The notes beneath the pieces were generated by a model. It did no database searches. It had not been told where the DNA came from and saw nothing but the letters and a program-made list of their open reading frames with translations. Below, in pieces: positions 4,963-34,262 of a DNA stretch of 64,000 bases. Every line of letters begins with the position of its first letter. Within the stretch, counting starts at the first letter, position 1. The translations under genes were made by a program, and so were the position numbers. Source of the stretch: Escherichia phage AV121; sequence record OR352951.1; one strand, given 5' to 3'.

Positions 4963-6587
<1,625 letters not shown>

Positions 6588-33302: not shown

Positions 33303-33414
33303 AGTATTTTCCTCAGTAAGGGGCCAAAGCCCTTTTCTTTTGTTTGTGTAAGATAATACTATCACAAAGGAACCGTACTGTAAACAACTTTATGCAATCT
33401 TTGGAAAATAAAAA

Positions 33415-33434
33415 AGGACTCCCGAAGGAGTCCT
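33415..33434 (-). terminator. rho-independent terminator after the basic small ORF
   Basis: AGGACTCC-cgaa-GGAGTCCT preceded on the plus strand by a 10-nt A-run (U-run on the minus transcript). Confidence 0.7.
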
Positions 33435-33438
33435 CAAC

Positions 33439-33615
33439 TTATGCTTTCTGCTTACCAAAACGAGAAGCATCATCTCGAAGAACCGCACGTGCTCGGCGCA
33501 TGATCTTCTCAACAGTTTGATTGATACGAGAGTTCGACCCACGCTTGTAACCAGCGCGTTTAGAATCACCAACTTTCTTTTCAACTGCTTTCTTTGCTTT
33601 AGCTTGTTTTGCCAT
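33439..33615 (-). CDS. small lysine/arginine-rich basic protein
   Basis: 58 aa from ATG 33615 (MAKQAKAKKAVEKK...); track alternative start 33657; hairpin terminator immediately downstream. Confidence 0.4.
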   Translation of the reverse strand: MAKQAKAKKAVEKKVGDSKRAGYKRGSNSRINQTVEKIMRRARAVLRDDASRFGKQKA

Positions 33616-34013
33616 TATAAAGTCTCTTTTAAATGAAAATGCAGGACTTATTGGCATTGCCTGCGCAAGCCCTCAAAGGGAACATAGGTTTTTGGATATT
33701 TAACGACCAGGATAACCATAAACCCGTCATCATACCTTATAGCTCTTATCTGTTGCACACCGTTAGCTTAAAGGTTCCGGGTCCGATTACTCGAGGATAA
33801 GATATATACTGATGGATATATAGGCCTTGAGGCGTACTCCCGATTGGCCATCACCTCGGGGTAGCATGCACTTGCCGCTATAAGAATAACATTCAAGAGG
33901 TACACCGTAAAACTGCCGGGGTCTTAAAACTATAATGATTCGCAAATCATTAATCAGACAGTTCGACGGCTCCTCGTTTTAACTTCACACTAAGGTAGTG
34001 ACTCTCCAATAAA

Positions 34014-34262
34014 TTACTTCAGTGTTACCACAAAGTGACGAACTGCTTTTCGTGCAGCAGAAGCCAGTGGCTTAGCATATTTAAGTTCATCTTTTTCCTG
34101 AAGCTCAGCAGCTAATGCAGTTTGAGCAGGATTCAGATGTTTGAAATAACGCAGGATTTCAAGAGCTTCGGCTTCAACATCAATAGATGCACCATAGTTT
34201 TCGTGACCATTATTCCATGCGTTTCGTTGCAGTTCAAGAGCGTGTTGTAATTGTTTAATCAT
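34014..34262 (-). CDS. rIII: rIII lysis-inhibition accessory protein
   Basis: 82-aa ORF, same length as T4 rIII; sits just upstream of gene 31. Confidence 0.8.
   Translation of the reverse strand: MIKQLQHALELQRNAWNNGHENYGASIDVEAEALEILRYFKHLNPAQTALAAELQEKDELKYAKPLASAARKAVRHFVVTLK

Follow-up and report, generated by a model that had tools for sequence, protein, structure and literature searches.

A conserved multi-junction RNA element between rIII and gene 30.9 of Escherichia phage AV121, shared as an accessory unit among phages

We analyzed the interval between rIII and the homologue of gene 30.9 in Escherichia phage AV121 (sequence record OR352951.1), within a window, i.e. the whole stretch of DNA under study, of 64,000 nucleotides. 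Comparison of homologues shows that the centre of this interval, positions 33735-33885 on the minus strand, encodes an RNA of ~140-150 nt which is predicted to adopt a conserved, intricate fold and is not protein-coding. The element is specific to phages, dispensable and transferable as a unit. A previous inspection of the letters, made without database searches (hereafter the sequence-only reading), had proposed for this interval of ~355 bp a structured non-coding RNA (ncRNA), a decayed gene remnant or a regulatory or origin element. The first proposal is strongly supported for the central ~150 nt, but not for the whole 355 bp: the interval is composite, with the structured RNA at its centre, a ToxI-like unit next to rIII and separate flanks. 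This modularity, the ToxI-like unit and the absence of the RNA from phage T4 had been missed.

The window stems from a T4-like phage of the genus Tequatrovirus, and the region is 98-99% identical (blastn) to vB_EcoM_JB75 and Yersinia phage PYPS2T. The interval was compared by blastn with 50,697 phage records, 1,029 of which share part of it. Eleven genus-level representatives were aligned with MAFFT, and RNAalifold predicted 44 base pairs for this alignment, 18 of them with compensatory double changes. A covariance model (CM), R1, built from the alignment detects a single copy in the window with 179 bits and E=4e-39, and also recovers full-length copies in IMG/VR, metagenome and GenBank loci.

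The revised structure comprises 47 pairs, including a kissing loop, and was assessed on 37 distinct sequences. On both sides of the helix 29 of the 47 pairs vary; when the 3' partners were slid by 1-3 columns as a register-shift control, only 4-8 such pairs remained. Standard pairs make up 99.1% of the paired cells, a percentage somewhat inflated as the counting alignments had been fitted to the model, versus 26-43% in the register-shifted controls, and none of 500 shuffles matched the observed pairing values. The same helices emerge from the independent MAFFT/RNAalifold alignment. Apart from P2 with its 3 bp, each helix contains several covarying pairs; the divergent Yersinia phage fHe-Yen9-01 adds one covariation each to P2 (GGU/ACC) and to P7, where CCCG/CGG changes to CCCA/UGG in one event. 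Alignment with relatives in search of compensatory changes, as the sequence-only reading had suggested, was thus more informative than the folding energies it had also called for: the whole interval folds at chance level in comparison to shuffled sequences (z=0.03 on the minus strand, -0.22 on the plus strand) and the central element weakly better than chance (z=-1.5). Thermodynamics alone confirms nothing here, comparative covariation does. G·U cells number 60, at 14 pairs, versus no A·C cell, which identifies the folded strand as the minus strand of the window, the same as that of the surrounding genes.

Conservation and coding potential point in the same direction. The element is 81-99% identical across genera whose flanks no longer align, and the rIII protein is only 63-77% identical. 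An intergenic piece that is better conserved than the adjacent genes points to a functional non-coding element. A six-frame check revealed a stop in every frame of all 37 distinct homologues, with the longest open frame differing by genome. Public records nevertheless carry hypothetical proteins over the RNA element, namely JB75_0063A (locus L001, 1664-1858), COW86c_228 (L006, 704-838) and QHB49571 (L008, 749-853); given that no frame is conserved, these annotations are probably spurious. The two outcomes named beforehand as speaking against an RNA, a frameshifted conserved gene or a lack of both conservation and structure, both turned out in its favour. As far as sequence alone can take such a case, the element ranks among the more convincingly supported orphan RNA folds.

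The predicted fold consists of seven helices (P1-P7) with joining segments (J), whose positions are listed in Table 1. P1, P2, P4 and P5 meet in a four-way junction with zero unpaired linker bases, and the P5 arm terminates in a three-way junction of P5, P6 and P7. The apical loop of P3 kisses the loop of P4. This contact occurs in the variants UGAUGG/CCAUCA, CGAUGG/CCAUCG, CUAUGG/CCAUAG and CAAUGA/UCAUUG; pair 33-94 of the alignment reads CG in 24 sequences and UA in 11, with zero one-sided changes, and pair 35-93 is GC in 32, AU in 2 and UA in 2. Three inner P3 pairs (GGC/GCC) proposed by RNAalifold were replaced by this 6-bp kissing loop, which explains their one-sided changes. The complementary segments quoted in the sequence-only reading (CCTCAA/TTGAGG and CCGGG(G)TC) do not correspond to true helices; only the first CCGGGTC copy sits in P7.

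The stretch GCUAAYGGUGNGCAACAGAU, which runs from the end of the P7 loop through the P7 3' strand and J7/5 into the beginning of the P5 3' strand, is nearly invariant in the 37 distinct sequences from more than 12 genera, and the joiner J7/5, GCAACA, is invariant. Altogether ~40 invariant bases are unpaired or located in junctions. That they cluster in joiners and loops suggests an active site or a surface for specific binding, and J2/3 together with the P7 loop, the P7 3' strand and J7/5 likely forms the functional core. The P7 loop of phage EcS1 accommodates an inserted hairpin. Among the unpaired columns a search for further tertiary pairs returned only noise from single outliers; a possible U-A/C-G pair within the P7 loop was seen as one event. 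Judged by eye, neither a K-turn in the P2/P3 internal loop nor an 11-nt tetraloop receptor was supported, and the P6 loop is not conserved as GNRA.

Table 1. Positions of the RNA element, its parts and the surrounding features in the window (bp, base pairs; aa, amino acids; ORF, open reading frame).
Feature	Positions	Strand	Remarks
Structured RNA element	33735-33885	-	CM match, 151 nt; conserved core 33743-33877
P1	33877-33881 with 33739-33743	-	extendable here to 8 bp, CUUAUAGC/GCUAUAAG; closes the four-way junction
P2	33874-33876 with 33823-33825	-	GGC/GCC, 3 bp
J2/3	33866-33873	-	AAGNGCAU opposite CUCAAG; internal loop of 8+6 nt between P2 and P3
P3	33856-33865 with 33832-33843	-	10 bp; 12-nt apical loop
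P4	33816-33822 with 33803-33809	-	six-base loop, all kissing
Kissing-loop partners	33810-33853	-	P3 apical UGAUGG (33848-33853) with entire P4 loop CCAUCA (33810-33815)
P5	33796-33802 with 33744-33750	-	UCUUAUC/GAUAAGA; leads to the three-way junction
P6 hairpin	33783-33794	-	short; loop not conserved
P7	33778-33782 with 33757-33762	-	ACCCG/CGGUGU; 15-nt loop GAACCUUUAAGCUAA
Most invariant stretch	33751-33777	-	P7 loop GAACCUUUAAGCUAA, P7 3' strand CGGUGU, J7/5 GCAACA
ToxI-like (pseudo-ToxI-like) unit	33974-34008	-	diverged, single; immediately past the rIII stop; UGGAGAGUCACUACCUUAGUGUGAAGUUAAAACGA
A+U-rich hairpin	33933-33953	-	UUAAUGAUU-UGCG-AAUCAUUA; 8 bp; UNCG-type tetraloop; from sequence and minimum free energy fold
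30.9-proximal flank (30.9 5' leader)	33616-33734	-	hairpin AUGAUGACGGG...CCUGGUCGUU (33702-33733)
Motif CCCUUUGAGGGCUUGCG	from 33680 downward	-	in the 30.9 leader
rIII	34014-34262	-	82-aa ORF; same annotation in near-identical phages; lysis-inhibition accessory protein; upstream gene of the transcription unit
Gene 30.9 homologue	33439-33615	-	58 aa per T4 annotation; extendable to 33657
Intrinsic terminator	33414-33435	-	after 30.9; sole terminator-like site found

We assessed how the element is distributed. Using the middle piece of the interval as blastn query, 407 phage records were found, 397 of them nearly full length and with a single copy per genome. In Kanagawavirus, Jiaodavirus, Marfavirus, Moonvirus, Muldoonvirus and Roskildevirus only this middle piece aligns, with 83-96% identity, and it is always located between rIII and 30.9. 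Among 48 rIII loci collected from IMG/VR with an rIII protein profile, 20 contain the element; all 20 copies are complete, with none partial, located on the rIII strand and starting between a few and ~130 bases past the rIII stop. In T4, phiD1 and AR1, on the other hand, the interval aligns as two pieces without the ~150 nt in the middle, and the CM run with its speed filters off gave no match in T4, phiD1, phiR1-RT, T2 or T6.

In three near-isogenic comparisons the element is found either in full or not at all, with its limits exactly at P1: the window phage versus T4, the Yersinia phages fHe-Yen9-01 versus phiR1-RT, and PKM.Lu.22.1 versus Salmonella phage PKM.Hi.22.6. The last pair is the most telling. 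Both are 76-kb Grimontviridae (phage 7-11-like) and unrelated to T4; the compared locus is 98% identical between them, and the element is a clean insertion in PKM.Lu.22.1, between an unrelated gene and a gene for an extracytoplasmic function (ECF) sigma factor. In T4 the empty site lies between GAATGT and ATGATGACGG. Exactly at the RNA site (window 33734/33886), where T4 has nothing, T2 and T6 have 46 nt of unrelated sequence inserted (TACTATCATGCGTCAGAAAAGTGTTATCTGTGTAAGTCTTGGTG; L106 (T6) ~5600-5650, L107 (T2) ~6455-6500). Three alleles at one site in one genus suggest a recombination hot spot.

Outside of phages no copy was detected. Two degenerate pattern scans of 185,579 GTDB genomes, which required exact conserved words and could therefore miss distant relatives, gave no match, and neither did blastn against 5,426 complete E. 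coli genomes. PLSDB plasmids returned only two 30-nt matches (blastn, E=0.4), which we take as chance, while one metagenome scan and two viral-contig scans contained close T4-like relatives and chance matches only. The distant candidates L021 and L097-L101 were dismissed by the CM or, for L021, by the coding context.

The second module of the interval, the ToxI-like unit, has a published counterpart. The type III toxin-antitoxin system ToxIN, which acts by abortive infection, has as its antitoxin the RNA ToxI, built of 36-nt repeats (PMC3475682). Pectobacterium phage phiTE carries a feature annotated 'pseudo-ToxI; weak antitoxin to ToxN' and escapes ToxIN through expansion of its pseudo-ToxI repeats; the original 1.5 repeats are inactive until expanded, and GAC in place of CUA at positions 27-29 is responsible for the lost antitoxin activity (PMC3475682). 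In PKM.Lu.22.1 a 31-nt stretch located 3 nt past the element is 97% identical to the sequence following the rIII stop of Dhakavirus VR26, and this VR26/PKM unit is identical to the phiTE feature over 25/25 nt (blastn). Like ToxI, it retains CUA at positions 27-29. In the aligned T4-like phages, with or without the 150-nt RNA, one ToxI-like unit comes after the rIII stop; it is very well preserved in VR26, well preserved in fHe-Yen9-01 and diverged yet recognisable in T4 and in the window. Alignment with the better kept units that VR26 and fHe-Yen9-01 have in the equivalent place shows the window unit to be clearly homologous, but only about two-thirds identical; judged by this divergence, its antitoxic activity is doubtful. 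The tandem repetition required for the full 36-nt pseudoknot was not found, the window and every T4-like locus examined having one unit each. The Rfam scan (E<=1) provides no independent test, since even the pseudo-ToxI unit of phiTE itself went unmatched.

The units examined outside the window are located at L059 1749-1779, L074 ~1755-1790, L096 ~1440-1480, L007 640-690 and L104 ~700-745. Furthermore, ToxI-like units with 88-100% identity lie between genes, without annotation, in Acinetobacter T4-like phages, Vibrio phage PWH3a-P1, ~110-kb Klebsiella phages, and Phapecoctavirus and Pectobacterium phages. From these sequence matches, mimicry of ToxI may be far commoner than the single published case, and no paper connecting pseudo-ToxI with the rIII locus of T4-like phages was found in the literature.

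In every setting examined the RNA element and the ToxI-like unit are adjacent, at a spacing of 3, 11 or ~90-100 nt. The order of the modules is permuted, with the ToxI-like unit preceding the RNA in T4-like phages and following it in PKM.Lu.22.1, for which capture from a tandemly amplified donor locus is one possibility. The unit is native to the PKM phages, where it is placed after the stop codon of an unrelated gene and just upstream of a terminator. Between VR26 and PKM.Lu.22.1 it is 97% identical, the RNA only 85% (L059 1749-2023; L007 640-840).

In order to see whether the element belongs to a described RNA family we consulted Rfam 15 (4227 CMs). A scan of 1.1 kb found nothing over the element at E<=10; the element alone gave a single match, to sobemo_FSE with 11.8 bits and E=4.8, taken as chance. 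The divergent homologue in EcS1 had no match either, and scans of three other loci contained nothing relevant. ARAGORN detected 0 tRNA or transfer-messenger RNA (tmRNA) genes in the whole window; the sequence-only reading had recognised no tRNA by eye. The fold itself is not tRNA-like, having a four-way junction without linker bases and no T-loop motif of the GGUUCGAAUCC-type T-arm. With filters off, R1 had no match over rnaC/rnaD of T4 (70908-71171), the best score of that locus being 6.2 bits and located elsewhere. A group I intron (Rfam Intron_gpI) was not matched, and the element is intergenic in every genome examined. ToxI was defined by a 36-nt unit, usually in tandem, with a core of AGGUGAUUYGCUACCUU(U)AAGUGC; the 150-nt element has no internal repeats of this kind.

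Fold and genomic behaviour allow us to infer, fairly strongly, that the element is a self-contained module which would act as RNA through its own fold and would not regulate its neighbours, because these neighbours differ, the spacer to the next start varies (~60-180 nt, of variable length and content) and phages without the RNA keep the same leader. In T4-like phages it should be made within the rIII-30.9 transcript, since the search there showed neither a promoter nor a terminator belonging to it. Transcription on the minus strand, as assumed in the sequence-only reading, is consistent with all neighbours lying on this strand and with the only terminator-like site following 30.9.

With a confidence somewhat short of even we favour an accessory, dispensable RNA that would bind a specific host or phage factor (protein or small ligand) via the invariant surface of J2/3, J7/5 and the P7 loop, possibly as a counter-defence decoy. 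Most plausibly it would act as decoy or inhibitor in the conflict between phage and host, as is assumed for the adjoining ToxI-like antitoxin mimic. We hold this specific counter-defence role to be much less probable than the proposal as a whole; it is suggested by the accessory distribution, the horizontal transfer and the constant association with an antitoxin-mimic RNA, and pseudo-ToxI of phiTE is a documented case of counter-defence by RNA (PMC3475682). There is a real, though clearly less than even, chance that the element represents an RNA class with a new function, be it a self-cleaving ribozyme of a new kind or a folded decoy or sponge neutralising a bacterial defence component.

Several points weigh against the favoured explanation, in addition to the inflated pairing percentage and the modest folding energy mentioned above. 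Given the missing promoter and terminator, a discrete stable RNA species is only putative in T4-like phages. In PKM.Lu.22.1 a promoter-like site does end exactly at P1, but it is a weak match (9/12), and the terminator ~37 nt past the element predates the insertion, being present in the RNA-less PKM.Hi.22.6. The counter-defence role is a guess from context only, and element and ToxI-like unit could lie side by side simply because both occupy a recombination-prone 3' untranslated region (UTR). Homology of the element itself to ToxI was rejected: only the RNA of this phage has 6-9-mers in common with ToxI (AAGUGCA, GCUACC, AGGUGAU, ACCUUUAAG), but across the family these words vary according to base-pairing and not according to ToxI likeness.

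The main rival is a new self-cleaving or otherwise catalytic ribozyme cutting the polycistronic rIII-30.9 transcript, in which kissing loop and four-way junction would place the P2-P3 internal loop against the invariant core of the three-way junction. The size of ~140 nt, the multi-junction fold with a loop-loop contact, the location of invariant bases in joiners and loops instead of helices, and a freely variable base between invariant ones in J2/3 (AAG-N-GCAU) would all fit this proposal. Small self-cleaving ribozymes in phage genomes typically show an intergenic position, patchiness and horizontal transfer, and the element is likewise intergenic within an operon, patchily distributed and horizontally transferred. 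We nevertheless consider a ribozyme unlikely: no Rfam ribozyme family matched even at E<=10, the likeness to hairpin and Varkud satellite (VS) ribozymes is one of architecture with no shared core sequence, and a mere processing site would hardly explain 81-99% identity and acquisition by another phage family. Somewhat less probable still is a cis-acting riboswitch or leader that would sense a ligand or protein and control 30.9 and the 30.x cluster, or the sigma-factor gene of PKM.Lu.22.1. Size and complexity are typical of aptamers, often multi-helix junctions locked by loop-loop contacts, and a gene on the same strand always lies downstream. In PKM.Lu.22.1 the 3' strand of the element (AGAGGCUG) could even pair with the 5' half of the terminator ~37 nt on; this terminator and the intervening ToxI-like unit, however, already exist in the sister phage that lacks the RNA. 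Neither a terminator nor a start-masking hairpin follows the element in T4-like phages, the ~60-180 nt before the next start codon are unrelated in sequence, and the genes downstream are not of one kind, with 30.9 in one case and an ECF sigma factor in the other. T4, T2 and T6, moreover, express the same downstream genes without the element. The regulatory or origin element of the sequence-only reading is likewise not supported for the central element, which travels independently of its neighbouring genes.

The remaining alternatives are weaker. If the compact fold served passively for RNA stability or processing, within the 3' UTR of rIII or, in PKM.Lu.22.1, of the preceding gene, it would block 3'-exonucleases or direct RNase cleavage; this would agree with a start 5-15 nt past the rIII stop in several genera and directly past the upstream stop in PKM.Lu.22.1. 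A simple hairpin would be enough for this purpose, however, whereas ~40 invariant unpaired or junction bases and a kissing loop imply a far more specific function; in the Tequatrovirus, Dhakavirus and Jiaodavirus examples examined the element is also ~90-130 nt away from the stop codon, and we regard this explanation as improbable. An element acting at the level of DNA, be it a miniature transposon with P1 as its terminal inverted repeats, an origin or a recombination site, is very improbable. It would account for clean insertion/deletion (indel) polymorphisms bounded by an inverted repeat in three lineages and for the three alleles in Tequatrovirus. Ends recognised by a transposase would be conserved in sequence, though, while the P1 repeat varies and covaries; no target-site duplication is visible at the PKM junctions, each genome has one copy, and the G·U asymmetry (60 versus 0) together with covariation of the internal helices indicates selection on a single-stranded transcript. 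Least credible of all, and in our view close to negligible, is a small protein gene or its remnant. Mechanical ORFs of 34-64 codons do overlap the element in individual genomes, and some have been annotated, but no frame is open across it in any of the 37 homologues and the longest one shifts by genome. Substitutions compensate within helices and track base-pairing, not codons, and indels of 1-7 nt are confined to loops; the gene remnant considered in the sequence-only reading is thereby disfavoured as well.

Around the gap the genes for dCMP deaminase, 31.2, 31.1, gene 31, rIII and the 30.9 homologue form a series on the minus strand. The gap between rIII and the next gene lies where the sequence-only reading had placed it; its true non-coding extent is 33616-34013 or 33658-34013, depending on the start of 30.9. 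The claim that no ORF exceeds about 40 codons was slightly off: ORFs of 45 codons (GTG start) and 52 codons (TTG start) on the minus strand, both with alternative start codons, and of 55 codons (ATG start) on the plus strand overlap the gap, though none of the three is conserved. A windowed calculation bore out the enrichment in guanine and cytosine (GC), with 0.438 in the interval compared to 0.362 in the window. Among equal-sized windows the interval ranks in the top 4% and the central element (0.477; core 0.496) in the top 1.7%; as the flanks reach only 0.39, the enrichment stems from the centre of the interval. Regarding 30.9, a start at 33657 yields 72 aa, as annotated in JB75 and T6, and a start at 33615 yields 58 aa (MAKQAK...), the annotation used for T4 and T2. 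For the shorter form the GAG ribosome-binding site is better positioned, and this form agrees with other genera; the product is a small, very basic protein.

The flank sequences common to the RNA-less T4, T2 and T6 do not depend on the element, and the downstream genes are likewise shared by these three phages. The A+U-rich hairpin between ToxI-like unit and RNA is identical in T4, T2 and T6, is followed by UAGUUUUAAG and was too weak to be called a terminator in the scan. On the other side, the 30.9 leader is present irrespective of the RNA in alignments of T4, T2, T6, JS10 and a Tegunavirus pair; in JD18-type phages this flank is unrelated. A leader motif conserved between Tequatrovirus and Tegunavirus consists of GUAUGAUG, a hairpin with a differing yet paired stem and GUUAAAUAUCCAAAAACC (window 33702-33733 and 33664-33680 on the minus strand; L074 ~1935-2010; L103 ~590-660), and further along CCCYUNGAGGGCUUGCG is conserved into Kanagawavirus. 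It may represent a regulatory element of the 30.9 leader. A small ORF right after the element (MMTGLW..., 33629-33733) was discarded, its peptide not being conserved in Tegunavirus. We also discarded a sub-threshold Rfam match to Atu_C8, a small RNA (sRNA) of Rhizobiales (33400-33483, minus strand, 31 bits, E=4e-4), which corresponds to the terminator hairpin (GAGGACUCCUUCGGGAGUCCUUUUUU) and is no homologue; a Phe_leader match is likewise just the hairpin of the terminator after 30.9.

T4-like phages are among the best-studied viruses, yet the element has probably been overlooked, presumably since the laboratory strains T2, T4 and T6 lack it. RNAs as complex as this one are usually catalysts or bind a specific partner. 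Being dispensable, cassette-like, shared across phage families and adjacent to a ToxI-like unit, the element is a concrete and testable candidate for a factor made of RNA alone in the conflict between phage and host; to our knowledge very few such factors exist. If this is true, an RNA-only cassette moving between phages and clustered with an antitoxin-mimic RNA would make up a small locus for counter-defence by RNA downstream of rIII. Genetic analysis is made straightforward by the phage pairs that naturally differ in the element and by the empty site of T4.

The element can be compared with several known systems. With riboswitch aptamers (SAM-I, lysine, purine) it has in common a closing P1, a multi-way junction, arms tied together by Watson-Crick loop contacts and conserved joiners; it differs by the lack of an Rfam match, the four-way junction without unpaired bases and the absence of a conserved platform or downstream gene class. 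The hairpin ribozyme is built on a four-way junction with arms bearing internal loops, and in the VS ribozyme (~150 nt) a kissing loop sets an internal-loop hairpin against a junction-borne core. Both resemble the element in architecture, the VS ribozyme also in size, whereas sequence and CM similarity are lacking and the order of the helices differs. The T4 species 1 and 2 (rnaC/rnaD) are also small (119-139 nt), of the size of stable RNAs, encoded by T-even phages and co-transcribed with their neighbours; in contrast to the new RNA they map to the tRNA-cluster locus, the tRNA-like T arm at the end of rnaC has no counterpart in the new RNA, and T4 itself is devoid of the latter. Pseudo-ToxI of phiTE (Blower et al. 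2012, PMC3475682) is likewise a phage-encoded, non-coding, dispensable and short intergenic RNA, but ToxI and pseudo-ToxI are 36-nt tandem units forming small pseudoknots, and the new RNA is a single multi-junction fold of 140-150 nt. In the literature on ncRNAs at rIII/30.9, on structured RNAs of T4-like phages and on anti-defence RNAs of phages we found no description of the element; T4-like phages do not figure in a 2026 preprint on ncRNA mining, and a paper on the DRT9 ncRNA (kissing loops, Tequatrovirus) is unrelated. The motif is absent from Rfam 15 and a text search with its own sequence found nothing; it may stand unnamed in one of the large motif catalogues. The closest objects in kind are the orphan phage and viral RNA motifs predicted in Fremin et al. 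2023 (PMC10690425) and in Weinberg et al. 2017 (PMC5737381), which are intergenic and supported by covariation as well. We accordingly rate the element as a new RNA family within a known kind, the phage-borne accessory structured RNAs.

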